Shown: positions 1 to 20,744 of the stretch, one piece after another
Numbering within the stretch: the stretch's first letter is position 1
Layout of the letters: each line of letters starts with the position of its first letter
Virus record (IMG/VR): IMGVR_UViG_3300025828_000162
Location: 1 to 26,251 of that record
DNA from: a virus
Taxonomy: Duplodnaviria > Caudoviricetes
DNA: 26,251 nucleotides
Direction: 5' to 3' (one strand)
Made by a program: the position numbers and the translations under genes
The notes under the pieces: model-generated
Database searches by the model: none
What the model was told of the DNA's origin: nothing
What the model saw: only the letters and a program-made list of their open reading frames with translations

Positions 1-903
1 ATTTATCCATTGACTTATGTTACCAGTTTTATTTGTTAAATTATCTGAAGAACTTGCAGTTATAAACCCTGCTGTATTTGTATCAATTACTGTTTGAACT
101 TTTGCATCAGTATAATATTTATTTGTTCCTTCAGCTAAATCAGAAGTTGTTTTACCAGATAAATCTAATGTAGTTGAAATAGAAGCATCAGCAGTACCAT
201 CAAAACTAGCAGATCCAGTTATTGGGCCTGTTAATGAAATGTTTCTAGAAGTAGCTAATCTTGTTGCTTGATCAGCAGAAGTTACAGCATCATTAATTTG
301 TATATATGCACTTCCTGACCATCTATAAACATCACCTGTATCTTGAGCAATATAAATTTTACCTGTTTCACCAGTTACTGGAAATGAAGCAAAATTAGAA
401 TATTCTTCAACATCATCAACATAACTAGGTAATTGTGCAGCTCCAACTTTACCAGTACCATCTAAACCAGCATAACCATTTATTTGATTTTTATTACTTG
501 TTTGTTCAAATTGTGTACTATCCAATCCATCTATAGTTCCTGCATCAACATTTAAATTATTAACAAATGTTGTATCTACACGTGCATCTATAGCTGCATT
601 CATTGAACTAGTATCAACTGTACCGGATGGGCCTTGTGGGCCTGTTGCTCCTTGTGGGCCTGTTGCACCTTGTGGGCCTGCTACACCTTGGATACCTTGA
701 TCACCTTTAGCACCAGCCGGACCGGTTGGGCCTGTTAAACCTTGTGGGCCTGTTGGGCCTGTTGGGCCTTGTGGGCCTGTATCACCTTGTGGGCCTTGTG
801 GGCCTGTTTCCCCTTGTGGGCCTGTTTGTTTTGAAACATTTACAACTGGAGCTTCTCCATCTACTTTTATAATTGGAGTATTTCCATCTACAATAATTGT
901 CAT
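1..903 (-). CDS. Collagen-repeat tail fibre protein (3' end truncated by window edge, >301 aa)
   Basis: Not in ORF track. ATG at 903 after an AAGGA SD; frame open to base 1. [27 protein letters not shown], 23 Gly-X-Y triplets, then fibre motifs [107 protein letters not shown]. Confidence 0.9.
616..822 (-). repeat. Collagen-like (Gly-X-Y)23 coding repeat
   Basis: Uninterrupted GPQ/GPT/GAT-type triplets; the 9-nt unit GGCCCACAA recurs. Confidence 0.95.
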
Positions 904-918
904 AATTATTTATTCCTT

Positions 919-1368
919 TTATTGAGGTTGATATCTTATTACAAATACAAACCTTAATGATTTTTTAACTTCAGGACTACCTGCAGCCCATTGAACTTTC
1001 ATAACCACAATATATGGTGATGTATCATCAGGAGCAGCTGTAAAACTACCTTGATCTGATAATAATGTTTCAGGAACTAATAATTCAAATTTACCAGCAG
1101 TACCAGTATTATATATAAGTTCTGCCTTTGTATATGAATGCTTTGTTGCAGTAGGTTCTTTTGTTAATGAATCAATTACAATAGATCCTCTTTTTCTTGT
1201 AACAGTTGCTTCAAATAATTCAGCTTGTATATCAAAAGTAGTAGCTGCATCACTAAAATCTATAGTTCCGTCTTCTACTGATATTAAAAATTGATTACCT
1301 TCGGCTACTTCTCGAGCAATAATATTATCTGCTCCTCCTAAGTAATGTTGTATGTTTGATATTCTCAT
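919..1368 (-). CDS. Putative tail/baseplate fibre-adaptor protein (beta-rich, BppU-N-like)
   Basis: Strong AGGAG SD; 149-aa beta-rich protein directly upstream of the fibre gene. Function inferred from position and pattern only. Confidence 0.5.
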
Positions 1369-1394
1369 ATTATCTCCTGTAGGTTAGTTATGAG

Positions 1395-1422
1395 TAAATA
1401 TATATCTGTGGACATATATTTA
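1395..1422 (-). terminator. AU-rich 12-bp hairpin after the 711-aa gene (weak terminator or processing stem)
   Basis: Minus strand TAAATATATGTC-CACA-GATATATATTTA with one G-U pair; no clear U-tract. Confidence 0.35.
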
Positions 1423-1427
1423 TTTTA

Positions 1428-3563
1428 TTAATTTTCTTTTACCCAAGCAGTACCATTCCATTTATAGATATATTCAGCCACTAAGACATCAGTATTGCTA
1501 TCTGTTATTGTATAAGTACTTCCTTTGTTAGTATAAATTGTTGCACCAGTATCATCAATTCCTAAAGACAAACCTGTGATATCACTATCATTGCTTACCC
1601 TATATGCTAAATATATTTTAGTAGAATAATAAATCATTTCAGATCCACTTATTACTGTGTCAGGTGTATCAACTGGTATATTATATATTTCAGAAACAGT
1701 TAAAGTTTCTGTATCAATAACATATTGTCCATTTGAATTAGCAATTATGTCAAAGAAACCATCTACTAATGCTGCAGAACCATTTGACATACCATCAAAA
1801 GCAAATTCTGGAGTTTTTATAGTAGCTACTTTATATCCTGGATATATTGTACCTAAAGTATTTTTAGTAGTTTGAAACCAAGAATAATCTGTTGCAACAT
1901 TTGAAAATACATCTTTATTAGCTAATGTTACAGATCTTAAACCATAATAATCTGGTGTTTTTGAACCTAATGTCGTAATTGAAGCATTACCAACACCTGT
2001 TGAAAAATCACCTAATGTAGTTCCTGTACCAGCTGAATCAGTTACAAGTAATTTAAATATATTATTTACATATCCATTATTAACTGCAGTAAATCTAATT
2101 TGATTTGAAACAGGTTGATCTTTTTCAATAGTCCAATCAGTTATAGAATTATTAATATTTTCCACTACATCTGCAATTGTATTTACAGCACCAGGTAAAC
2201 TTGGAACAAAACCAACAAAACTTTTATTATAATTAGCTGAAGCGCTTCCAGGTTTAAATACTTGAATATTAGTTTTACCTGCATCATCAATATTGGTTTG
2301 TGTTGTACCTAAACTACCTTGTGTAACAGTTTTAGTAATATTTAAATCAGAAAAAGATACATCTAATCCTATATCATCTTGAATTGTTGTAGTCCAATTA
2401 ACTATATCTGAATTACCTGAATCAATTGAAGCAGTTATATATCCATTTAAAGCAGAATTTAATGCATCTCTAAACTCAAGTGCAGCATTAGTAGAATTTA
2501 AATTATTACTAAATGATGTAGCACTTCCGCCAGTAAATGTAACTTTACTAAATAAAGGTTGTCCATTTACAGTAGTTGTATATAAATCAGGGGCAACTAT
2601 AGTATATGTTTCATTTAATACTCCAGATCTTGTAATTGAAGCATTACCAAAAACAATATTTCCTGCATCATCTCCAGTAACAGATCCATTATTTACAGTA
2701 GCAGTCCATAATTGACTAGGATTTGAATCAAATGGAATTGCACCAGTAAATGTAATCTTTTTAGTTTCAGTATCATATGTAGCAGAATAATTATTAGGAG
2801 ATTCAGTATTATTGTTTATTAAATCAACTAAATCATTTCCAATATCATCTGATTGATCATCACTTTCTAAATTAGCTGCAACATTTAATGTTAATGTACC
2901 TGTTCCATCTGGTTCAGTTAAAGTTATACTTGTAGCAGCAGTAGTTCCAGCTCCATCAGTTTCATATTCATAATTGTGAATAATATTTGTACCATCACCA
3001 GCAACATCATTAATTGTAAAAGATGTAATTTCATTATCAGCTGTACCTGTATTAACTATTATTCCATAACCTGAAAAATCTACAAGACCACTATCTGGGT
3101 TTATATCAGATACATAACTAGGTAATGAAACAGATAGTCCACTTATACTTAAACCTAATATTGCTGTTCTAATTTCGTTTAATGCATCAATAGCACCAAT
3201 ACCGTTTGATAATGCAATATTATTTAAATATCCTAAAGTTCCTAAACTAACTGAATATTGTGTATTTGATCCTGAACTCCATCTTGTTTCTAAAGTAGGT
3301 TCAGTAGAATTATAAATATATAAATCATCATCTAAAATAAATTCTTTACCAAACCCAACAATATCAGCTGAATCTGAATAAGTGAATTGTGATGAATAAC
3401 CACCATCATCAGTAAATATTTGTGTATTTGTAGTTGTTACTACAGCAACATTAGTACTATCTAAAATATGAATATTTTTTAAACTATTTCTTATATTAAT
3501 ACCAGTAATAATATCTGAGCCTGACCATGTTCCTGCGTTTGCATAAACAGAACTGATTGCCAT
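1428..3563 (-). CDS. Tail-tip adhesin part C (711 aa): propeller-like N-terminus, four repeated beta/alpha domains, C-terminal YKWNGTAW motif
   Basis: AAGGA SD; T/S/G/N/D-rich virion composition; repeated helices DALNEIRTAI, DIGNDLVDLIN, AALEFRDALN, IADVVENINN. Confidence 0.75.
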   Translation of the reverse strand: MAISSVYANAGTWSGSDIITGINIRNSLKNIHILDSTNVAVVTTTNTQIFTDDGGYSSQFTYSDSADIVGFGKEFILDDDLYIYNSTEPTLETRWSSGSNTQYSVSLGTLGYLNNIALSNGIGAIDALNEIRTAILGLSISGLSVSLPSYVSDINPDSGLVDFSGYGIIVNTGTADNEITSFTINDVAGDGTNIIHNYEYETDGAGTTAATSITLTEPDGTGTLTLNVAANLESDDQSDDIGNDLVDLINNNTESPNNYSATYDTETKKITFTGAIPFDSNPSQLWTATVNNGSVTGDDAGNIVFGNASITRSGVLNETYTIVAPDLYTTTVNGQPLFSKVTFTGGSATSFSNNLNSTNAALEFRDALNSALNGYITASIDSGNSDIVNWTTTIQDDIGLDVSFSDLNITKTVTQGSLGTTQTNIDDAGKTNIQVFKPGSASANYNKSFVGFVPSLPGAVNTIADVVENINNSITDWTIEKDQPVSNQIRFTAVNNGYVNNIFKLLVTDSAGTGTTLGDFSTGVGNASITTLGSKTPDYYGLRSVTLANKDVFSNVATDYSWFQTTKNTLGTIYPGYKVATIKTPEFAFDGMSNGSAALVDGFFDIIANSNGQYVIDTETLTVSEIYNIPVDTPDTVISGSEMIYYSTKIYLAYRVSNDSDITGLSLGIDDTGATIYTNKGSTYTITDSNTDVLVAEYIYKWNGTAWVKEN

Positions 3564-3578
3564 TTTAAATTTCCTTTA

Positions 3579-4106
3579 TTAGTTAAATTGTCCACCACCA
3601 GTTGCAACAAAGTCAGTATAATCTATTGAACTTGTTTGTACAACTTGTGAACCTGTATTAGTATAAGTAATTACATTGCTATTAGAACTTGCAGTAAAAT
3701 TAGTTAAATTATTTATCGCTAAAGCTATAGCTGTAGCAGTACCTTCAACAGTTGAAGACATAGTATCTGTTAATGTACCATAGTCTGTTAAAGATAATAT
3801 CCATGCTCTAATCGGATTAGTAGTATTATCATAATTACTATCTAATGTAATTGTATATGTATTTGTTGTACCAGGTCTTGTTAAATTAATTTCTCTAACT
3901 TTTGTACTTGTAGTAACTTTTATAGTATCATTATCTTGTATTTTAATTGATAATATACCACTAATAGTTTCAACATCTTGAAATACTTTTTCAAATCTAT
4001 GATAATATTTTATTTTAGTTCCATTATACCAAACAATAATATTTTCATTTGTATCTACAATGTTATTGCTAATATCTAAATTTGATATTGTATCTAATAT
4101 TGCCAT
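3579..4106 (-). CDS. Tail-tip adhesin part B (175 aa), ends GGGQFN
   Basis: AGGA SD; N-half of short beta strands, C-half one copy of the repeated domain (GTATAIALAINNLTNFTASSNSNVITYT). Confidence 0.7.
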   Translation of the reverse strand: MAILDTISNLDISNNIVDTNENIIVWYNGTKIKYYHRFEKVFQDVETISGILSIKIQDNDTIKVTTSTKVREINLTRPGTTNTYTITLDSNYDNTTNPIRAWILSLTDYGTLTDTMSSTVEGTATAIALAINNLTNFTASSNSNVITYTNTGSQVVQTSSIDYTDFVATGGGQFN

Positions 4107-4126
4107 TATTTTATTCCTATATAATT

Positions 4127-6697
4127 TTAATTAAATTGTGCACCACCTAAAGCGCCTAACAATGATGGTATTAAATAAATATTCCATATTTCTCCTTCAG
4201 TAACTGATGAATTATAAAGTAAAACATCATCTCCCATATTAGAAACATTAAAGTTTTCAACACCACCTGCATTTGTTCTTGCATAAAATGACCAAGTATT
4301 ATTAACCAATTTAAATGAAAACAATTCAGTATTAGACATTACATATGCAGTTGAAGTACCTATAGATACAGATCTTCCAAAACCGCTTGATACACCATCA
4401 GGAACTAATGAACTTAATTCTAAAGAACCATTTACTTTAACACTATTAGTTGAAGAATCTGCAGTTAAAAAACCAGCTGTATCCCAATCTTTAGCATTTG
4501 CAATTATTTTTCTAGATGTATCATTTTGTATATCATCAGCTAAATTAATATGTAATAATTCTTTTTGTGTTACATTACCTCTTGTTCCTGTAAAACTTAT
4601 TTCTTGTTGTTCTGTTACAGCAGTTCCTGAATTAAAATCAGATGGAAATGTTACAGATCCTGAACCATCAGTTCCACCTGTTCTAGTAATTGTATTAATT
4701 GAAGTACCAGCATAACCTATTTGTTGAACAGCAGGAGTATCATTAAATGTATCTCTCATATTAGATCCAGTATTACTATCTGCATATCTAATTTGAGTAA
4801 ATCTATTTACAACTCCATAAGGATTTTTTGTATCATTAGGATCAACAATAATTCCAGAAATACCTGAAGTAATACCTCCAGCACCTGGTCTAAATACACC
4901 AAAATCATAAGCATTAGAAAAAGCCCCTCTAGCAAATTGATTAATTGGCCTTACCCAAAATACTAATGTATCTGTAAAATCTATATCAAATACTTTGTGT
5001 CTAATTGTTGCACCTTCAGTAAACGGACCTGTTGATGTTCTAAATGAAATATTAAATTCTCTATCAGCAATAGGATCAGCAATACTATCTCCAACATATA
5101 TTTCAAATGTTTCTGTTAATCCTGTTGGTACAGTCCATTGTAATTCTACAAATGGTGTAGAAGAATCTGTATCACTACTAATTGATGTTAAATCAGTAAT
5201 TGTTCCAAAATTTCTAGGATTAGCTAAGTTTGTATTTGGAACTGTTTGAAATTCTGTTAATGCTTGTTCTGCATATGCAGCAGCATTATATTCTTGAGCA
5301 GTAATATAATATCCTGATACACCATCAGTATTCATTTCAGTTTCAGTAATAGAATTAATTTTAAACAATTTATTAGTAAAACCATAAGTGTTATTTGTAA
5401 CTGATATTATATCTGTAACTTGTAATGCTAAAGCCCTTGTATCTGTTTTAAATGATACAATTAAATTATCTCTTGATTTTTTAATAATAACATTAGCGAC
5501 TCTTTCAGCCATAATATTATTATTTATATATTTTAATCTTGTGTCTTGAACTAATTCAGGTTCATTGTATGCTTTTTGATCACTAGCTAAAGTTAAAAAT
5601 ACTTGATCATCTTGAAATTTTTGATCAATAGAATTAAAAGAAATATTCATTTTATTTATGGTACTATTAAAACCATCATTAACTATAGTAACATCACCAT
5701 ACATATTATCAGGTGTAAATGACATTACAGATGTTCCTGTAGTATCAGAAATAATTTGAAATTTACCTAAATGATAACTAAATATACCTTGAGAACAAAC
5801 TACTAAATCAGAAATATTTAAATCCCTTGTATCATTAGTATTTAAAGCACCATTTGTTGTATATCTTTTAGCACTTACTGTTGCTCCATTTTTATCTGTA
5901 TGTGAAATTAAAGTATCACAAAATGTTTTATGAGCAGCAAATGAATCTAAATCAATATCGTTGTCTGATAATACATCACCACAACCATAAAAACTATTAG
6001 TTAAATAATCTAATAAACATTCAGCTGGGTTATTTGAATAAAAAGTATCAGTTGATAAAGTACTTCCAGTAAAAGTCCTAACTAATTTACCTTGAACTTC
6101 TGCACCTAATTTAGTTGTTAAACCTGTTACAGATTCATCTCTATTATATTTTAATTCACAATACAAATATGCAACATTTGGCATTGTTCTATTTTCAGCA
6201 TTGGTGTTCCATTTAGAGGAAAATGTTTCCATAGGAGAACATCTACCACCAGCTTTAAATTTTTTAACTATTAAATTTCCATTTAAAAAATTATCTGTAT
6301 TACCATCTGGATCTGTTGCATTTGTTACATTACCATCACTATCTAATGTTAATCTAAAATTATCCCAATATACATCATCAATACTTTCAATTGGCCCCTC
6401 ACATAATGAAATAATAAATGCCATTGTTTGGTTATCAGATGTTATATCTGCAAATGTAATTGAACCAAATACTTTACCTCGTCCATAAATAACAGGAAGT
6501 TTATTATTAGGGTCTGATGCAATTCTTTGTCTAACTCCTGGATCAGGGGCTGTTTCACCAACACCTGCATTTGGAATATCTGGAGCAAATAATTTATTTG
6601 CGATAAATGAAACTGCTACTGACAATGCAAATCTAGCTATCATTCCTTTAACACCTGCTGATGTAAGAACTGTTATAACTGGTGCAGCTGCTGCCAT
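4127..6697 (-). CDS. Tail tip / host-specificity protein (lambda gpJ-like hub, FN3-like domain, variable C-terminus), ends GGAQFN
   Basis: LPVIYG, LCEGPIESI, SNNPAECLLDYLT and ALALQVTDIISVT...FKINSI motifs; FN3-like VELQWTVP...FWVRPINQF; FG-GAP-like GFGRSVSIG near the end. Confidence 0.88.
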   Translation of the reverse strand: MAAAAPVITVLTSAGVKGMIARFALSVAVSFIANKLFAPDIPNAGVGETAPDPGVRQRIASDPNNKLPVIYGRGKVFGSITFADITSDNQTMAFIISLCEGPIESIDDVYWDNFRLTLDSDGNVTNATDPDGNTDNFLNGNLIVKKFKAGGRCSPMETFSSKWNTNAENRTMPNVAYLYCELKYNRDESVTGLTTKLGAEVQGKLVRTFTGSTLSTDTFYSNNPAECLLDYLTNSFYGCGDVLSDNDIDLDSFAAHKTFCDTLISHTDKNGATVSAKRYTTNGALNTNDTRDLNISDLVVCSQGIFSYHLGKFQIISDTTGTSVMSFTPDNMYGDVTIVNDGFNSTINKMNISFNSIDQKFQDDQVFLTLASDQKAYNEPELVQDTRLKYINNNIMAERVANVIIKKSRDNLIVSFKTDTRALALQVTDIISVTNNTYGFTNKLFKINSITETEMNTDGVSGYYITAQEYNAAAYAEQALTEFQTVPNTNLANPRNFGTITDLTSISSDTDSSTPFVELQWTVPTGLTETFEIYVGDSIADPIADREFNISFRTSTGPFTEGATIRHKVFDIDFTDTLVFWVRPINQFARGAFSNAYDFGVFRPGAGGITSGISGIIVDPNDTKNPYGVVNRFTQIRYADSNTGSNMRDTFNDTPAVQQIGYAGTSINTITRTGGTDGSGSVTFPSDFNSGTAVTEQQEISFTGTRGNVTQKELLHINLADDIQNDTSRKIIANAKDWDTAGFLTADSSTNSVKVNGSLELSSLVPDGVSSGFGRSVSIGTSTAYVMSNTELFSFKLVNNTWSFYARTNAGGVENFNVSNMGDDVLLYNSSVTEGEIWNIYLIPSLLGALGGAQFN

Positions 6698-6699
6698 AA

Positions 6700-7137
6700 T
6701 TAAATTTCCTTTTTATACATTGATTGAAATTCTTTATAGTTCAATTTATTAAAATTAATATTTGTTTTAGGTATAGAATAAAAAATTATATCTTTAACTT
6801 CTTTATGATTTTTTATTTCTTTTTCCAATTTTTTATTCATTCTATAAAATATAGATGAACCCCTTTTATTAGGATGAACCCAAGTTAATAAAATATGTAA
6901 TTGTGTTATATGTGGATTTAATAAATTAGGTATTTTCATTCCTAATAATACACCATCTATAACTCCATTTTTATCTTCTGATATTATTGCAGTTTTATCT
7001 TTTGCTATTGCTTCCATTAAACCTTTATAATATTCTGTATTATCTTCTTTAAATTGACCAAAGTCAAATTCTTTTCTGTGTTGTTCAAGTAATTTTACAC
7101 CTTGATCAACATCTTTATATTCTCCGATTCTTATCAT
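6700..7137 (-). CDS. GNAT-family acetyltransferase in the tail module
   Basis: 145 aa; acetyl-CoA motif A-like WVHPNKRGSSIFYRM preceded by the typical strands (IISEDKNGVIDGVLLG). Confidence 0.75.
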   Translation of the reverse strand: MIRIGEYKDVDQGVKLLEQHRKEFDFGQFKEDNTEYYKGLMEAIAKDKTAIISEDKNGVIDGVLLGMKIPNLLNPHITQLHILLTWVHPNKRGSSIFYRMNKKLEKEIKNHKEVKDIIFYSIPKTNINFNKLNYKEFQSMYKKEI

Positions 7138-7152
7138 TATATTTATTCTCTA

Positions 7153-7740
7153 TTATTCTTCTGCTCCAAACCTTGGATTAAAATTAACCATTGAAGCCAC
7201 AAATTCCATTGAAGCATCATTGCTTGTATATTGTTTAAATGAACTATCAGATGTAAACCTACCTGATTTAGTGTCTAATAAAGCACCTACTATATTTTTA
7301 CATTCAATACTTATATTAACATCACCTTCATTAGTGTTTTCTTCATCAACTGAATGTGAATTAATTATACCTTGCCATTTTTGATATACTTGGCCTTCAA
7401 TTGCTCCATTTTCATCATTCCAAAAAGCTTGATATATAGTAACTATACCACCAATAGCATTTACATTTTCTAAAGCAGCTATTATTGTGTTTGGTAAACC
7501 ATTTAATTGTATAGTTACTGAATTAGTTTTTACATCTTTAGTTTCTTCAACAGCAGATAAACCAATTATGTTTGATCCAGGTAAATATGTATCACCATTA
7601 TAAGTAATATTTGTATATCCTGTATTTAAAAATAAACTATCATTATTATCTGCAGTTACTTGAAATTTAATTAATTGAATTGGATAAGTTTTAGTATTTG
7701 ATACTTCAGCTAATGTTGTTGAATCTATTGACTTTACCAT
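7153..7740 (-). CDS. Tail tip/baseplate hub protein (gpL/DUF2163-like)
   Basis: ITYNGDTYLP, GLSAVEET, VTIYQAF, RFTSDSS...DASMEFV pattern; position between Dit-like gene and tip protein. Confidence 0.7.
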   Translation of the reverse strand: MVKSIDSTTLAEVSNTKTYPIQLIKFQVTADNNDSLFLNTGYTNITYNGDTYLPGSNIIGLSAVEETKDVKTNSVTIQLNGLPNTIIAALENVNAIGGIVTIYQAFWNDENGAIEGQVYQKWQGIINSHSVDEENTNEGDVNISIECKNIVGALLDTKSGRFTSDSSFKQYTSNDASMEFVASMVNFNPRFGAEE

Positions 7741-8354
7741 TATAATATCTCCTGAAAATTAAAACTATCATAAGCATAATAATTATATCCTGGGCCAGGA
7801 ACAACTGTTACATTTGGTCTTCCATTTAATAACATTTTAAATTGTACACCATTACCATAAGTAAATGTATTACCACTTACAATTGGGTTAATTGCACCAG
7901 TCATTAATTTAAAAGTTAATAAATTACTTGAAGCATTTGCATCAGCTTTAATTTGATAAACTTTTGTGCTTGAACTAAATTGTATAAAATCACCAGCTTT
8001 AACATTGCTTGAATTATCTACATTAGCCAATTGAACGTCTTCTCCACTTGTATTTGCATTAACAATATCAATTGACAAACCAGATTGTGCAATTATAGAT
8101 CCATTAGCAAAAGTTAAATTAATTGTTGATGGTAAATCAGTTGTTTTAAAATCTATTCCATCTGTTATTCCTAATAATTCTGCTTCAACCTCATCATATT
8201 TCGATTTAGTTAATAATGGTAAACTTACTTCCATAGAATAAAATGTTGGACTGCCTCTTTCAATTCTAGCATAACCTGAATTAGATATTGATCTTCTAAC
8301 TCTGGCAGCTCTATTTAATGAGACACTATTTGTATATTCAAATATTTTTGACAT
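7740..8354 (-). CDS. Distal tail protein (Dit-like)
   Basis: First gene after tape measure (TAATG overlap); VKAGDFIQF...KVYQI insert and terminal FNFQEIL. Confidence 0.7.
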   Translation of the reverse strand: MSKIFEYTNSVSLNRAARVRRSISNSGYARIERGSPTFYSMEVSLPLLTKSKYDEVEAELLGITDGIDFKTTDLPSTINLTFANGSIIAQSGLSIDIVNANTSGEDVQLANVDNSSNVKAGDFIQFSSSTKVYQIKADANASSNLLTFKLMTGAINPIVSGNTFTYGNGVQFKMLLNGRPNVTVVPGPGYNYYAYDSFNFQEIL

Positions 8355-10483
8355 TATTTTCTCCTATTTCTTAAACCAGCAGTATTTCTAGTAAAATTTC
8401 TATTAGCTCCACCTACTTCAGCAGGGCTACTTGTTATAACAGCTTTAATTTGATCAATTGCTCTTTGATCTACATTTCCGGATATATTAAATGTATTATT
8501 AACTACTGAACCCATAGATCCTTGAACCTTATCTCTTGGTATTACAACTTCTCCTGGTGTTAATAATGCAGGTACTCTATCTGTATATGGTGCACCACCT
8601 GGTACAACTCCGCCTTTATTAAAACCTAAGAAAGAAAATAAACTACCACCATTACCACCACTTACAGCAGCAGTTGCAGTTGCTAATGCTAATTGTTGAG
8701 CTTTTTCACTTGTAATTTGTTTTTCAACTATAAGCTTTTTAGTTCCTAAATTTTCAAATAATTTTTCTATACCAACTTCAATAGTCTTTTTTATAATAGT
8801 TTCAGCTATAGTTTGTAATACATTTTTAAATAAATTTTTAGTCGTTTCTAATAATGAATTACCTTGTCTTAAGCCTTCTAAAAAAGTTGTACTAATTGTA
8901 TCTGAAATTAATTTAGCTTCAATACCAGAATCTTGTAAAAGATCCCTATATGTTCTTTGAGCAGCGTTAGCTTTAGCTTGATCAATAATCATTCTTCTAT
9001 TTGTGAACATAATTCGTTCATTTATAGAAGCTAATTCATCTTGTCTTTTTAAAAAATCAGGATCAGTTGCAGCACCAAAATTAGGTCTTGATCTAGGATC
9101 CCTTACAGCTCTTGGTGTTGTTCTTGTTCCTGAAAATAATTGTTTTTGTTTTTTATTTAATTTTGTATAAGCATTAATAACTTCATTAGCTTCAATTTTT
9201 ATTTGATTAAGTTCTTCTCTTAATAATTTTGCAGCTTCTTCTGCTTCTTTTGAAGCTTTTGGAAACACTTTTAATTTAGAAACAAAATTAAGGACTGCTA
9301 ATTGAGCTTCTTTCATTTTATTTATGAAATAATCTCTAATTGTATTTACAACTTTCATTATAGCATCATTAAATGCAATAAATGCTACAACTGCTACTTG
9401 TATTGCAGTTATAATAATACCAACTATATTTGCTCTTAAAGCTATATTTAAAGCAGCTAAACTAACTGTTGCACCTTTTATATTTGCTGCTAATAAAATA
9501 AATTGAGATGCAACTCCAGCAACAAATGTAGATATTTTTAATCCAATAAATATTTTAAATGCAGTAACTAAAGCATCAATATTTGTGGATACAAACCTAA
9601 TTGCATTTTCAATACTTTTAAAAGCTCCTGCTAAATTTTCACCAACAGTTTTAGCTAATGATTTTAATTCAGCATCATTTCTTTTAAAATTACCTACTAA
9701 ATCAATTAATTGTTGTTTAACACCTTCAAATAAAGGTTGAGCAGCGGCTTGTCTAAATCTAAAATAAGCATCTTCTACAAATGAAACCTGTGCTTCTAAT
9801 GTTTGTTCAAAGTCTTTTGTTGCTTTAGAAAATTGACCACCACTAGAAAATACTTCAAAAAATCTTTTTCTAGTTTGTTCAATTGATACTTTAGCACCGG
9901 CTTCAAAGCCTAACATTGCTCTAACACCTCTTTCTCTAAAGACGTCAGCAGCGGCTATACCACCAGCAAATGCTCTTTGAATTTGTTCAGCAGTTTGTCT
10001 AAAATCTAAACCTGTAGCTGCAGCAACATTACCTGTTATTTCTAATACTTTAGCTAATTCATCAGCATCTTTAGCAATAACAGCTAGATTACCAGATCCT
10101 GCTGCAATAGCTTCTAGTGAAAATGGAACTCTACTAGCAAATTGATTTAATACATCAAATGCTTTTGCACCCTCTGAAGCTGAATTAAATAATAGTTTAA
10201 ATCTTACTTGTAATGATTCAGTAAGTTGTCCTGCTTGAAATGTATCTCTTATAAATTTACCAATACCAAAAGTAACAGCAGCTAATGATGCAGCAACACC
10301 AACTTTTAAAGTTGTACCAAGTGCTGCAAAAGTTGCTCTTGATTTAGCAGCTGCAGTTTCTAATTGTTTTAATCTTCTTGAAGCTATAGTAGCATTAGTA
10401 CCTAATTTATTTAAACCAGATTGTAATGAACTTACTTGGCTCTGCCCCTTAACATTAGTAATTATGTCTAATTTTACAGCCAT
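8354..10483 (-). CDS. Tail tape measure protein (709 aa)
   Basis: Ala-rich helical protein; FASRVPFSLE tape-measure motif; hydrophobic central segments; C-terminal FNKGGVVPG...DRVPALLTPGEVVI. Confidence 0.93.
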   Translation of the reverse strand: MAVKLDIITNVKGQSQVSSLQSGLNKLGTNATIASRRLKQLETAAAKSRATFAALGTTLKVGVAASLAAVTFGIGKFIRDTFQAGQLTESLQVRFKLLFNSASEGAKAFDVLNQFASRVPFSLEAIAAGSGNLAVIAKDADELAKVLEITGNVAAATGLDFRQTAEQIQRAFAGGIAAADVFRERGVRAMLGFEAGAKVSIEQTRKRFFEVFSSGGQFSKATKDFEQTLEAQVSFVEDAYFRFRQAAAQPLFEGVKQQLIDLVGNFKRNDAELKSLAKTVGENLAGAFKSIENAIRFVSTNIDALVTAFKIFIGLKISTFVAGVASQFILLAANIKGATVSLAALNIALRANIVGIIITAIQVAVVAFIAFNDAIMKVVNTIRDYFINKMKEAQLAVLNFVSKLKVFPKASKEAEEAAKLLREELNQIKIEANEVINAYTKLNKKQKQLFSGTRTTPRAVRDPRSRPNFGAATDPDFLKRQDELASINERIMFTNRRMIIDQAKANAAQRTYRDLLQDSGIEAKLISDTISTTFLEGLRQGNSLLETTKNLFKNVLQTIAETIIKKTIEVGIEKLFENLGTKKLIVEKQITSEKAQQLALATATAAVSGGNGGSLFSFLGFNKGGVVPGGAPYTDRVPALLTPGEVVIPRDKVQGSMGSVVNNTFNISGNVDQRAIDQIKAVITSSPAEVGGANRNFTRNTAGLRNRRK

Positions 10484-11075: not shown

Positions 11076-11384
11076 TTATTGTTTAGATTTTTTAGCTAAG
11101 CTTTTTAATTTATTAAAACCAGCTTCTAACTTTAAATCTTTTTGAGTATTACTTTCCCTCATTATTTTCAATGAAGGGAATAAATCATTTACCTTAAGTG
11201 GTTTAGTACCTTGGTATGTGGTTTGAGCTAATATAGCAGTTCTATGATCTTCTCGCCAACCATAAGGTCTTTCATTAAAATATTTTATCCAACCCATATA
11301 TTCTTTACTGGACATATTATAAATAGTATCTAATGTAACACCTAATTGATGAGCTATTTCATATTCTGCTAATTCTTCTTCCCC
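11076..11384 (-). CDS. Tail assembly chaperone C-terminal part (gpT-like), reached by -1 frameshift
   Basis: Frame is open 23 codons upstream of the track's ATG (11315): GEEELAEYEIAHQLGVTLDTIYNMSSKEYMGWIKYF, a gpT-like pattern; overlaps the chaperone end in the -1 frame. Confidence 0.8.
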   Translation of the reverse strand, partial: GEEELAEYEIAHQLGVTLDTIYNMSSKEYMGWIKYFNERPYGWREDHRTAILAQTTYQGTKPLKVNDLFPSLKIMRESNTQKDLKLEAGFNKLKSLAKKSKQ

Positions 11385-11686
11385 AATTCACCACCTTTGT
11401 CATCTTTAGCGGCTAATCCGTTATATTCAAGAATTTCTTGAGACAATTGAGTTAATGCTTGAATAGGAAAATCTTCAAATTCAGATTCTTTCATATTTTC
11501 AGCACCTACAACAGTTTGTGTAAATATAGCGCTTAAGGTTTTTAAACCGGTAACATCTTCAGTTTTATTTACATCCAATGCTTTTTGTAAATCCTTTATA
11601 CCCTTAACTGTCAGTTGTTTGATCTCCACTTCCTGTTCCAGAAATGGTACTTTCTTCGTTATTTGTATTATTTTTATATGTTTCAT
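11369..11686 (-). CDS. Tail assembly chaperone (gpG-like)
   Basis: VEIKQLTVK motif; ends LGKKN; lies between tail tube and tape measure. Confidence 0.85.
   Translation of the reverse strand: MKHIKIIQITKKVPFLEQEVEIKQLTVKGIKDLQKALDVNKTEDVTGLKTLSAIFTQTVVGAENMKESEFEDFPIQALTQLSQEILEYNGLAAKDDKGGELGKKN
11378..11384 (-). promoter_or_regulatory. Programmed -1 frameshift site G GGG AAG
   Basis: TTG GGG AAG AAG AAT TAG; the -1 frame is bounded upstream by TGA at 11388-11390. Confidence 0.7.
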
Positions 11687-11912
11687 TATTTATTTCCCCT
11701 AAAGGTTTTTGATATAAATGTTTATTATTCGATTCAAAGTCTTCCATCATTTTTCTAATTTTATGTAAAACGTCTAATGTTTCAAAGACTTGTTGTTTAT
11801 CCTCTACATCTTTTAATCTATCATAAGTTTTTCTTATGGATGTATCTATAGATTTTTTTATATGCAAAGAAGTTATTCTTAATACATAATATTTATTAAA
11901 TGGTTTATCCAT
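11604..11912 (-). CDS. Hypothetical helical protein (102 aa; probable start MDKPFNK)
   Basis: AGGA SD before ATG 11912; the track's ATG at 11948 lies inside the upstream hairpin. Confidence 0.7.
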   Translation of the reverse strand: MDKPFNKYYVLRITSLHIKKSIDTSIRKTYDRLKDVEDKQQVFETLDVLHKIRKMMEDFESNNKHLYQKPLGEINNETYKNNTNNEESTISGTGSGDQTTDS

Positions 11913-11929
11913 GATTTTTATCCTATACA

Positions 11930-11959
11930 ATTTAATTAAGCTGGGCATTTAAGCCCAGC
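11930..11959 (-). terminator. Probable intrinsic terminator after the tail tube gene
   Basis: GCTGGGC-TTAAAT-GCCCAGC stem (11940-11959) followed by TTAATTAAAT on the minus strand. Confidence 0.6.
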
Positions 11960-17785: not shown

Positions 17786-18739
17786 TTATCCCCATAAATT
17801 TCCAGTCATAGAGCCCTTATTGTATTCAGTAGCTCTATTTTCAAAGAAATTTGTGTGTTCAACTCCATTTAGAACCCAATCTAGCCAACTTAAAGGATTG
17901 TCTTTAACTTTATAATTTGGTTTTAAAGATAATTGTAATAATCTTCTATCAGCAATATATCTTATATATTTTTTTACTTCTTCAGGTTTTAATCCACGAA
18001 TACCACCCATTTCAAAAGCTAAATCTATAAATTTATCTTCTAAATCCACCATATCCCGGGCAGTTTGATATAATTCAGCTTTAAATTTTTCAGTCCATAC
18101 TTGTGGGTTTTCTTTTATTAACTGATGAAATAATTTAATCATACTTTCGACATGATGAGTTTCATCTCTAATTGACCAAGTAACTATTTGACACATACCT
18201 TTCATTCTTCCAAATCTTTGAAAATTTAGAAGCATAACAAATGATGCAAATAATTGTAAACCTTCTCCAAATGCAGAAAAACAAGCAATATCTTTTATTA
18301 AACCTTCAACACCTTTGCCTTTTGGTTTAAATAAATATTCATGTTTATCTGCCATTTCTTTATATTCTTGAAATGCTTGAAAATTAGTTAATTGAGTTTC
18401 ACCAATAGTATCATTTAATAATGAATAACTATGAGCATGATTAGCTTCAGATGAAACAAAAGAGCCTAACATCATTCTAACTTCAGGTGCTTTAAATTGT
18501 GGAATATATCTGTCTAAATAAGCTTGAGCTATATCTACATCACCTTGAGTAAAAAATTTTAATATTTGACCTATTAAATTCTTTTCCTCTTGTGTTAATC
18601 TTTCGTTCCAATCTCTTACATCTTCATGTAAAGGAACCTCACTAGGAAGCCAATGCATCTTTTGCATAGTATCATATGCTTCAAACGCCCATTCATAATC
18701 GAAGGGCTTATAATAATTTCTAGTTTTAAATAAGCTCAT
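17786..18739 (-). CDS. nrdB: Ribonucleotide reductase class I beta subunit
   Basis: Metal ligands in FTQGD, EANH with radical Tyr (EANHAHSY), EGLQLF, DETHH; C-terminal FFENRATEY. Confidence 0.96.
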   Translation of the reverse strand: MSLFKTRNYYKPFDYEWAFEAYDTMQKMHWLPSEVPLHEDVRDWNERLTQEEKNLIGQILKFFTQGDVDIAQAYLDRYIPQFKAPEVRMMLGSFVSSEANHAHSYSLLNDTIGETQLTNFQAFQEYKEMADKHEYLFKPKGKGVEGLIKDIACFSAFGEGLQLFASFVMLLNFQRFGRMKGMCQIVTWSIRDETHHVESMIKLFHQLIKENPQVWTEKFKAELYQTARDMVDLEDKFIDLAFEMGGIRGLKPEEVKKYIRYIADRRLLQLSLKPNYKVKDNPLSWLDWVLNGVEHTNFFENRATEYNKGSMTGNLWG

Positions 18740-18868
18740 TTATTTCCTTTTTCTTTTTCTGATAACAACAAGTTTACCATTTTCTTCTTTTACTTCCATC
18801 CCAGCATCTTCAGTTTGTTTTTTTAATTGACGATACTTTTGAGTAATAGTTAATTTTTTTTTAATCAT
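18740..18868 (-). CDS. 42-aa basic microprotein MIKKKLTITQKYRQLKKQTEDAGMEVKEENGKLVVIRKRKRK
   Basis: Hand-translated; AGGA SD; stop abuts the nrdB ATG. Confidence 0.78.
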   Translation of the reverse strand: MIKKKLTITQKYRQLKKQTEDAGMEVKEENGKLVVIRKRKRK

Positions 18869-18876
18869 ATTTATTC

Positions 18877-18990
18877 CTATATACAATCACATATTGTGTT
18901 AATTATTGCCATAATAAATACATAGCCAATATATCCAAAAAGAATTATTGCTAATAATTTATCAGTCCAACTAAAAGTTTTTTTATCCAT
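18877..18990 (-). CDS. 37-aa single-pass membrane microprotein MDKKTFSWTDKLLAIILFGYIGYVFIMAIINTICDCI
   Basis: Hand-translated; TAATG overlap with the nrdA stop; about 19-residue hydrophobic stretch. Confidence 0.72.
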   Translation of the reverse strand: MDKKTFSWTDKLLAIILFGYIGYVFIMAIINTICDCI

Positions 18991-20744
18991 TATCCCTCAC
19001 AAGCTATACAATCTGATTCAGGTATTATTGTTCTTTCAACTTTTAAACTTACTAACTCAGCACGTTTAATTGCTTCAGATCTACAATAATATAATGTTTT
19101 TAATTTCTTCTTCCATGCTAACATGTGAATATCGTGTAATTCTTTTATATTTACATCAGCAGGAACAAACACATTTAATGATTGACCTTGACAAATATGT
19201 TCTTGTCTATCAGCCGCATGTTCAATGATCCATTGTTGATTAATTTCAATTGATGTTTTAAATACATCTTTTTCATAATCTGATAAATCTTTTAAATGTA
19301 AAACTGAACCACGATTAGCTAAAATAGAAGTCCAAGTTTTTTCATTATTTATACCTTTTTGCTCTAATAATTTTTCTAAATATTTATTTTTAACAAGAAA
19401 AGAACCTGACATTGTTTTTTGAACATATGCATTAGCTCTAAATGGCTCAATACTTGGAGAAGTTGTTCCACAAATAATTGAACTTGAAGCATTAGGAGCA
19501 ATGGCAAGTAAATGAGCATTTCTCATTCCAGTACCTTCCATATCCGGAGCTTCACCTCTTTTTATAGCTAATCTTTTTGATTCTTTTACTGCTTCATCTT
19601 TAATGTGTTTAAACATTAATTTATTTTTAGCTTTTGCCATAACAGATTCAAATGCAATATTATTTTTTTGTAAATAAGCATGAAAACCCATAGCACCAAG
19701 ACCAATAGATCTTTCTTGTGTTGCACTATATTTAGCTCTAAATACACTATCAGGAGCATTATCTATAAAGCTTTGTAATACATTATCTAAAAATCTAACA
19801 AGATCAGAAATAAATAATTTATCATCTTTCCATTCATCATATTTTTCTAAATTAACACTTGATAAACAACAAACAGCAGTTCGATCTTCATCGGTTGGTA
19901 ATGTAATTTCAGTACATAAATTTGAATGTTTAACTGACAATCCTAATTTCTTTTGTTGTTCAGGCAATGCATCATTAATATGATCAATGTAGCAAATATA
20001 TGGCTCACCAGTGGCTACTCTGTTTTCAAGTATTTTTTGCCACAAGTCTCTAGCTGAGACCTTTTTAACTATTTCTTTTGTATGTGGATCAATTAAATTC
20101 CAAGTATCATCATAAGTTGGTTCTTGAATACATTTTTCAATTAATTCCATAAAATCATTAGTAATGTTTATTCCATGATGTAAGTTTAAACATTTTCTAT
20201 GTATATCTCCACCTGATGGTTTTCTTATATCTAAAAATTCTAATATTTCTGGATGTGATATATCCATATATGCGGCATAACTACCTCTTCTAGTTTTACC
20301 TTGACTAAATGCCATAATTTCTGAATCTACAACTTTTAAAAAAGGAACAGATCCTGATGATTGAGATCCTCCAGATGTTTTAGTTCCATCAGATCTAATA
20401 TGACCCCAATATCCGCCAATTCCTCCACCAATAGATGTTAACCAAGCATTTTCAGTATAATGTCCAGTTAATCCCTCTCTACTATCTCCAACATAATTTA
20501 AAAAACAAGATATTGGCATACCTCGCTCTGTACCACCATTACTTAATACAGGAGTTGAATACATAAACCAAAGTTTTGATGCATACCCATAAATTCTTTC
20601 AGCCATTTCATCATTATCAGAAAAAGCCTTTGCTGCTCTTAAAAATGCCTCTTGTGGACTATTTTCTTCTGGTAATAAATACCTGTCTTTTAATGTTGTT
20701 TTACCAAAATCTGTGAGTAAATTATCTCTATCTTCTACTATCAT
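18990..20744 (-). CDS. nrdA: Ribonucleotide reductase class I alpha subunit (short, no N-terminal ATP-cone apparent)
   Basis: STPVLSN, PISCF, SNLCTEI, VCCLSS, APNASSS, TLYYCRS and C-terminal CIAC motifs. Confidence 0.96.
   Translation of the reverse strand: MIVEDRDNLLTDFGKTTLKDRYLLPEENSPQEAFLRAAKAFSDNDEMAERIYGYASKLWFMYSTPVLSNGGTERGMPISCFLNYVGDSREGLTGHYTENAWLTSIGGGIGGYWGHIRSDGTKTSGGSQSSGSVPFLKVVDSEIMAFSQGKTRRGSYAAYMDISHPEILEFLDIRKPSGGDIHRKCLNLHHGINITNDFMELIEKCIQEPTYDDTWNLIDPHTKEIVKKVSARDLWQKILENRVATGEPYICYIDHINDALPEQQKKLGLSVKHSNLCTEITLPTDEDRTAVCCLSSVNLEKYDEWKDDKLFISDLVRFLDNVLQSFIDNAPDSVFRAKYSATQERSIGLGAMGFHAYLQKNNIAFESVMAKAKNKLMFKHIKDEAVKESKRLAIKRGEAPDMEGTGMRNAHLLAIAPNASSSIICGTTSPSIEPFRANAYVQKTMSGSFLVKNKYLEKLLEQKGINNEKTWTSILANRGSVLHLKDLSDYEKDVFKTSIEINQQWIIEHAADRQEHICQGQSLNVFVPADVNIKELHDIHMLAWKKKLKTLYYCRSEAIKRAELVSLKVERTIIPESDCIACEG

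Follow-up and report, generated by a model that had tools for sequence, protein, structure and literature searches.

A conserved ten-residue C-terminal tag on three tail proteins of a siphophage is probably the split-off first strand of a truncated lectin

The stretch of DNA that we analysed, hereafter the window, comprises positions 1 to 26,251 of the IMG/VR viral record IMGVR_UViG_3300025828_000162 (Duplodnaviria; Caudoviricetes), which is rated 56% complete. It carries the structural module of a siphophage, encoded entirely on the minus strand: genes for terminase, portal, capsid, tail tube, tape measure, and distal tail are followed, in order, by gene A, gene B, gene C, a gene for a 149-aa protein, and the collagen fibre gene D (Table 1). 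Here we examine a short C-terminal peptide, termed the tag, with which proteins A and B both end (LGGAQFN and TGGGQFN, respectively, as the initial annotation of this locus had stated), and its relationship to a truncated lectin, E, which is encoded next to D. Protein A is a J-type tail-tip protein, as it has the N-terminal hub/J region of lambda gpJ-like proteins and is located after the tape measure and distal tail genes, and it matched PHROG 31 with an E-value of 1e-37 and PF13550 weakly. Its closest cultured match is the tail tip J of Pelagibacter phage Kolga (MT375529; 50% identity over 69%), a SAR11 siphovirus according to its description (PMC8163748), and we infer a host of the SAR11 type for the phage in the window. 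Scans of B and C against Pfam and PHROG gave no real match, and an Atlas search with B returned only B's own unnamed cluster.

Table 1. Coordinates of the tail-tip genes, their parts, and the lectin genes (window positions unless a contig is named)
Feature	Coordinates	Strand	Description
Gene A	4127..6697	minus	856 aa; J-type central tail fibre/tail-tip protein, N-terminal piece of split gene
A residues ~740-842	4172..4480	minus	continues straight into a B-like segment in unsplit relatives; probably propeller blades
A linker and tag (residues 843-856) and stop	4127..4171	minus	not in unsplit relatives; tag is the final 10 residues
A-B spacer	4107..4126	minus	Shine-Dalgarno sequence (SD) AGGA at 4115-4118; -1 to 26 nt in relatives, frame not shared
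Gene B	3579..4106	minus	175 aa
B residues 1-73	3888..4106	minus	predicted beta-propeller blades; middle piece of split tip protein
B C-terminal domain (~76-165)	3612..3881	minus	add-on not in L012 or P0263; carries second tag
B tag (final 10 residues) and stop	3579..3611	minus
B-C spacer	3564..3578	minus	SD AGGA at 3572-3575; 13, 15 or 18 nt in relatives, 16 nt in L004
Gene C	1428..3563	minus	711 aa; untagged C-terminal piece of split tip protein, with N-terminal blades and alpha/beta insert domains
Gene D	1..903	minus	collagen tail fibre (Pfam), cut by window end
Lectin E	L144:15727-17046		439 aa; LamG and SPRY; next after D; LamG_3 PF13385 E-value 2e-12, SPRY weak
F	L144:17046-18086		DUF7483 gene, after E

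None of the remaining 28 of the 30 complete window genes tested ends in this way, and G[GS][GA]QFN occurs twice in the six frames of the window; the chance that at least five of the six final residues agree is 5e-6 per pair, or 2e-3 over all 435 pairs. The statement in the initial annotation that no other open reading frame (ORF) has this ending is correct for those 28 genes; fibre gene D, whose end lies outside the window because the gene is cut at position 1, also has it, ending in GAAGGGQFN in a longer contig, L144. Conservation in relatives had been named beforehand as a check, and the motif passed it. Among loci collected by protein searches (L001-L020 and L144-L209, which include redundant contigs), a QFN terminus was present in 74 of 75 complete A ends, 71 of 72 B-core matches, and 26 of 26 fibre Ig-domain ends, with the sole A exception being a frameshift that leaves the tag in another frame and the sole B-core exception being a cross-match to a C protein. 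The sample contains 18 distinct DNA ends for A and 23 for B, and an Ala at -6 from the Phe is found in 18/18 and 22/23 of these, respectively, while the other residues immediately before the motif vary. The GGxQFN motif described earlier is thus real and conserved, but the tag is about ten residues long rather than six ([FL]xAxGG[GA]QFN). Some A ends are identical letter for letter to the fibre end (FGATGGGQFN).

Over 13,956 nt, L144 and the window share 99.9% identity, and L144 extends beyond the window end; for the window's own phage, lectins and tags were counted in 20 kb of this contig. Its D protein (871 aa), identical to the D of the window in 300 of 301 residues, provides the third tag. 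The E protein encoded after it is of the LamG/pentraxin type, with a ConA-like beta-sandwich, as indicated by its PF13385 match and by the model of an intact homologue described below. E lacks the tag at its own C-terminus, and a solved relative sought by sequence gave one chance match only (E-value 0.58). E and F likewise derive from the splitting of a single protein: they are joined in one chain in P0059 and others, compact in the model (predicted template modelling score, pTM, 0.90), and their junction is also a TAATG overlap. The tag is not always placed on the collagen fibre: at L325:14152-14904 the fibre is untagged, and a separate 250-aa protein that resembles the C-terminal part of D is tagged, as are A and B.

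Comparison of E with its intact homologues suggests where the tag comes from. The lectin set comprised 262 stored proteins, with 250 lectin domains that have sequence upstream of E's start and 121 that start at Met like E. The pattern S[LIVAT]x[FLIYT] stands at the position before E's start in 219 of the 250 domains, and the consensus of this strand is YxIxxSLRF[RN] (Y in 52% or F in 14% at -8, I in 54% at -6, L in 69% at -2, R in 89% at -1, F in 80% at 0, and R in 40% or N in 37% at +1; the S at -3 is fixed by the regular expression). Several of the 31 domains outside the pattern carry LQF or MQF. E begins where the intact homologues have just completed their first beta-strand, the tag falls in register with that strand, and gene ends of intermediate form occur (SMRFI, SMRFL, and EGMQFN). 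In the model of P0059 (E and F fused; predicted local distance difference test, pLDDT, 88), S18-F21 form a strand; the model's structural matches included 4dqa (Z 20.8, rmsd 2.6, 203 aligned) and CRP 1gnh (Z 18.4), and the LamG/pentraxin alignments start at residues 12-17. When covariation was calculated over the 250 intact domains, with kinship ignored, L19-F217 and L19-L29 ranked 3 and 4 among long-range pairs, which argues that the strand packs in the core. The pairs S18-Y171 and F21-M172 were weaker, and position 172 stays hydrophobic in truncated lectins (M 79%, L 13%, I 6%). By homology, E would therefore be an acceptor that lacks one strand.

The tag and the truncated lectin also occur together. 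Scanning viral contigs for the motif followed by a stop returned at least 121 stretches (about 460 estimated) with 120 distinct junctions, and the next gene at these junctions among the matches listed was a lectin in 100, B in 7, C in 6, and an unrelated gene in 1, with no sequence in 6. These lectin genes start with M-A-[ST/N], and a -1 TAATG overlap is found at 88 of the 100 lectin junctions among the matches listed. The reverse scan, which used truncated lectin starts and was blind to the upstream sequence, gave 103 stretches and 85 distinct starts, 84 of them with upstream sequence. A tag-like gene end lay upstream in 83 of these 84: QFN in 71 (including L294), variants in 11 (GGFN, ATFN, MGFN, GMFT, SMRFI, and SMRFL), and a one-base-shifted tag in 1. 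The last case, in the L012 record, has an untagged gene upstream; the one tag in that record belongs to A and lies 7.9 kb away. In L207 the single tag is on J, with E adjacent. The complete genome of Kolga resembles the window in having a 149-aa-like gene and a fibre gene after J, but B, C, the tag, and lectin E are all absent from it; the L208 record likewise lacks both tag and lectin. All five cultured pelagiphages checked (HTVC011P, Skadi-1, Greip, HTVC201P, and HTVC103P) have both a fibre tag and a truncated lectin. In HTVC011P (KC465900; L023:4339-6640) the annotated fibre stops about 280 nt short of the tag, and the tagged end was read from the DNA in the other frame, directly before the lectin gene, which suggests that the record contains a frameshift. 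Some genomes have two lectin genes (L234, at 5702 and 9276, L041, and L332), and in L234 both are preceded by tagged genes of their own, whose tag variants differ.

Alignments with relatives indicate that a single J-type tail-tip protein has been split into A, B[1-73], and C. The single chain of P0263 (1611 aa) aligns with A[1-832] at 65%, B[4-94] at 41%, and C[14-710] at 51%, its residues 1-839 corresponding to A at 65% identity, and it has no tag and no match to the C-terminal domain of B. The A, B-like, and C-like parts occur in the same order within one untagged ORF in L208, and B[1-73] continues directly into C[3-711] in L012, a natural fusion. An insert of about 700 aa without a Pfam match lies between the B-like and C-like parts of L208 (L208:2-5071). 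Residues 843-856 of A are missing from the unsplit forms, and a hidden Markov model (HMM) of the C-terminal domain of B had no match in C, A, L208, the B-C fusion of L012, or P0263. Because the A, N-terminal B, and C parts are contiguous and untagged in unsplit relatives, the tags are add-ons at two split points. The model of the L012 B-C fusion was poor overall (pLDDT 55, pTM 0.25) and unreliable beyond parts of its N-terminal half; the N-terminal part is all beta (pLDDT 75-86 at residues 11-80), and the structural matches were mostly beta-propellers (best Foldseek E-value 1e-4; Z-scores 9-10.7 over 70-135 residues, and up to 10.7 over model residues 1-153).

The initial annotation had proposed a chain, A-(B)n-C, in which the N-terminal domain of the next chain captures each tag and B is an optional or repeating extender. 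The conservation of the tags and their presence at both junctions fit this proposal, as does the lack of a separate B in one lineage (L012). However, the resemblance between the N-half of B and the N-terminus of C on which it leaned was not detectable (blastp E>2; hhalign probability 0.5%, E-value 0.12; no match of the B1-73 HMM in the C N-terminus); the two segments are both predicted propeller blades that are consecutive in natural fusions. The supposed sockets are instead contiguous, untagged parts of one chain in P0263 and L208, or fused to each other in L012. Nor is B repeated: the B1-73 profile matched in 116 of 328 loci, with a single match in 115 and one gene with an internal stop in the remaining locus, and no locus has two B genes. 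Together, the contiguity of the three parts, the lack of detectable homology between the two N-termini, and the single B per locus remove the basis for this chain, and the gene next to the tag is a lectin unrelated to B or C at 100 of the 120 junctions among the matches listed, so that we consider it very improbable. The accompanying idea of a C-terminal docking strand, as in donor-strand exchange, does fit the evidence, but with a different partner and architecture, the likely socket being lectin E.

We believe that the tag is probably a donor strand that completes E in trans, and that, through its reuse, A, B, and D would all display the same receptor-binding lectin. The GGxQFN end would be the first beta-strand of this LamG/pentraxin-type lectin, a strand that remained with the upstream gene after an old gene fission, and its register and co-occurrence with E suggest that it would complete the beta-sandwich from outside, in which case any tail protein with a tag terminus would carry a lectin. 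Within the clade of siphophages related to Kolga, the fibre-lectin junction may have been copied into the J gene at two loops. As this junction consists of a tag, a stop, and an overlapping ATG, its copying would split J into A, B, and C while keeping the downstream part translated. The three pieces would then reassemble via the propeller that they share, and one E (with F) would dock at each of the newly formed A and B termini and at fibre D. The E-F unit would bind the host surface, so that one variable receptor-binding unit would be multiplied over the tail tip; the role of E in binding carbohydrate or a host receptor is a candidate function that follows its fold and annotation.

It is also conceivable that the fibre tag completes E as described, but that the copies on A and B have been put to other use, either closing the split propeller or binding another partner. 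The A and B tags do lie at loops of the predicted propeller, and the A tags are mainly GGAQFN, with altered upstream residues. On the other hand, the Ala at -6 and the Q, F, and N are held exactly as on the fibre, and the L012 record retains a truncated lectin though its tag is on A only, which makes this alternative unlikely.

The junctions might also function as nucleic acid, namely as a cassette for translational coupling or recombination in which the Gly codons act as SD, the TAATG overlap links the genes, and the peptide is a by-product. Besides its frequency at the lectin junctions noted above, the overlap is kept in 10 of 18 distinct A-B junctions, the stop is TAA in 49 of 49 distinct tagged ends, and the B ends show little third-position variation, with CAA and TTT in 23 of 23. 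Yet codon changes within the tag are synonymous (at Gly, Gln, and Asn in A, and at Phe in D), and the peptide is kept at junctions whose downstream gene is served by a separate SD 11-26 nt off. This includes the window, where, in line with the initial annotation, B and C each have their own SD and ATG, with AGGA 8 nt upstream of the ATG in both. The peptide moreover matches the strand that is absent from E, and we regard such a cassette as distinctly unlikely. A DNA repeat search of window positions 1-8400 found, apart from collagen repeats, only a weak two-copy family spanning the two gene ends/starts (D19, 34 nt, 74%).

Least credible is the joining of the chains into one long protein, whether covalently or by recoding (readthrough, frameshift, splicing, or Asn-based ligation). 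While natural fusions exist and Asn is terminal in most tags, the A-B and B-C spacers measure -1, 11, 13, 15, 16, 18, 20, 22, or 26 nt among loci and have no frame in common, and B ends in a double stop. The natural ends FT, FI, and FL also disfavour a ligation tag, one of the initial suggestions, where such a tag needs Asn. Contigs from RNA libraries span both junctions without a joint, which is weak evidence from contigs only; these contigs cannot show strand, level, or transcription.

The D-E junctions have a further feature. In the subset of the clade examined (n=12), all 12 have a spacer of 56-91 nt with a new SD and a mini-ORF of 12-15 codons coupled to E, in contrast to the simple -1 overlap at 88 of the 100 lectin junctions among the matches listed. 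The mini-ORF, found at L144:15671-15726 and at 11 other D-E junctions, is rich in Lys and Ile and overlaps the lectin start via TAATG, and its terminus is FN in L144 and L194. It is possibly a second ribosome entry for E, or else a free peptide; the spacer would allow E in excess of D, which is only consistent with the display of E on A, B, and D.

Several points weigh against our interpretation that the tag completes E on three tail proteins. The binding of E is argued from sequence, co-occurrence, and the model of a homologue. The tag has Gly or Ala where the intact strands have Leu, Ile, and Ser, so that no E-value can be assigned to this ten-residue match. The truncated lectins are also altered at the predicted partner positions, with Y171 (90%) replaced by S, L, or C and the F217 region gapped; these changes may be compensation for a Gly-rich tag or adaptation to its absence, and they could mean that E folds without the strand. 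The counts are not independent, as the loci are redundant and related, and the remote tag of L012 represents one lineage with a 66% complete record. The L208 record, in which tag and lectin are both absent, is only 41% complete. A search of viral contigs with one exact pattern for an in-frame fusion keeping GGxQFN before a lectin gave 0 matches. Mini-ORF spacers similar to that of L144 are present in five other loci and in Skadi-1, where a second tag was not seen, and the propeller assignment draws on the poor model of the L012 fusion.

In donor-strand complementation and exchange, as in chaperone-usher pili and TasA, a strand-deficient fold is completed by a strand from another chain. The arrangement proposed here is similar in that another chain would lend a short terminal strand to complete a beta-sandwich that lacks one. 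It differs in that the acceptor is a LamG/pentraxin lectin instead of an Ig pilin and the donor is C-terminal, in that the donor-bearing and acceptor-bearing proteins are of different kinds, hence no polymer would form, and in that the strand is apparently the lectin's own, separated by gene fission. We therefore did not class the system with the chaperone-usher pili: donor and acceptor are not on one subunit, as N-terminal B is a piece of a split chain and E is untagged at its end, and in place of an Ig-like pilin fold the acceptor candidate is LamG/pentraxin and the N-terminal parts of B and C match propellers. No chaperone or usher gene was found among the 21 window proteins scanned, from a record that is 56% complete.

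Branched systems of receptor-binding proteins (RBPs) in Klebsiella podophages, as presented in one report, have a conserved peptide on the secondary RBP and a branching domain on the primary one (PMC13352976). There too, a short conserved peptide pairs with a domain of another tail protein to mount an RBP, but different RBPs are mounted, whereas here a C-terminal peptide on three scaffolds would complete a single lectin. We rejected membership in this class, as it is A, B, and D that carry the peptide, at their C-terminal ends, and not E. Pfam and PHROG scans of A, B, and C gave no match to a T4 gp10-like branching domain. In PilC/PilY1, a C-terminal strand of about ten residues joins the adhesin to the fibre by beta-strand augmentation (PMC13711793); the tail there is on the adhesin, whereas here it is on the scaffold and the strand would fill a gap in the adhesin. 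The lectin-domain gene of Skadi-1 is within a hypervariable region, and the pelagiphage papers report lectin genes in variable regions, with a tag or split domain unmentioned in their accessible portions (PMC10504331, PMC3909814). A literature search, whose coverage excluded subscription papers and supplements, found no description of this tag-lectin system, and searches for GGGQFN and DUF7483 gave one irrelevant match and none, respectively.

Elsewhere in the window, an acetyltransferase-like gene (6700-7137; PHROG 1249, E-value 5e-10) lies directly upstream of A, as it does in the relatives that reach that far, and two overlapping ORFs (114 and 105 aa; 11369-11948) between the tail tube and tape measure genes are conserved in relatives, in a position where tail assembly chaperone genes typically lie, and a frameshift may be involved. 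Between the portal and head morphogenesis genes are those for the alpha and beta subunits of a class I ribonucleotide reductase (17786-20744).

Beyond this locus, we lean slightly towards a more general view, in which SAR11-type phages use a portable ten-residue mounting tag derived from the split-off first strand of a lectin, and copies of the tag-stop-start cassette can enter other tail genes, each of which is split in place and gains a further site for the one hypervariable receptor-binding unit, with three such sites in this clade plus a second ribosome entry for the lectin. On this view, adhesin valency would be set by a natural form of split-domain tagging that is undescribed in phage tails. 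For annotation, A, B, and C should be treated as one split protein. The fibre-lectin pair is present in cultured phages and is amenable to a test with one protein and a synthetic peptide. If our interpretation is right, it would explain the attachment to the virion of a lectin whose gene is common in pelagiphages and, as the interface would be one short strand, how the lectin could be swapped while the fibre stays. For phages that infect the most abundant marine bacteria, it would identify a candidate receptor-binding unit (E and F) together with its mount, and it would point to a means by which the number of adhesins on a phage tail is raised without new adhesin genes.

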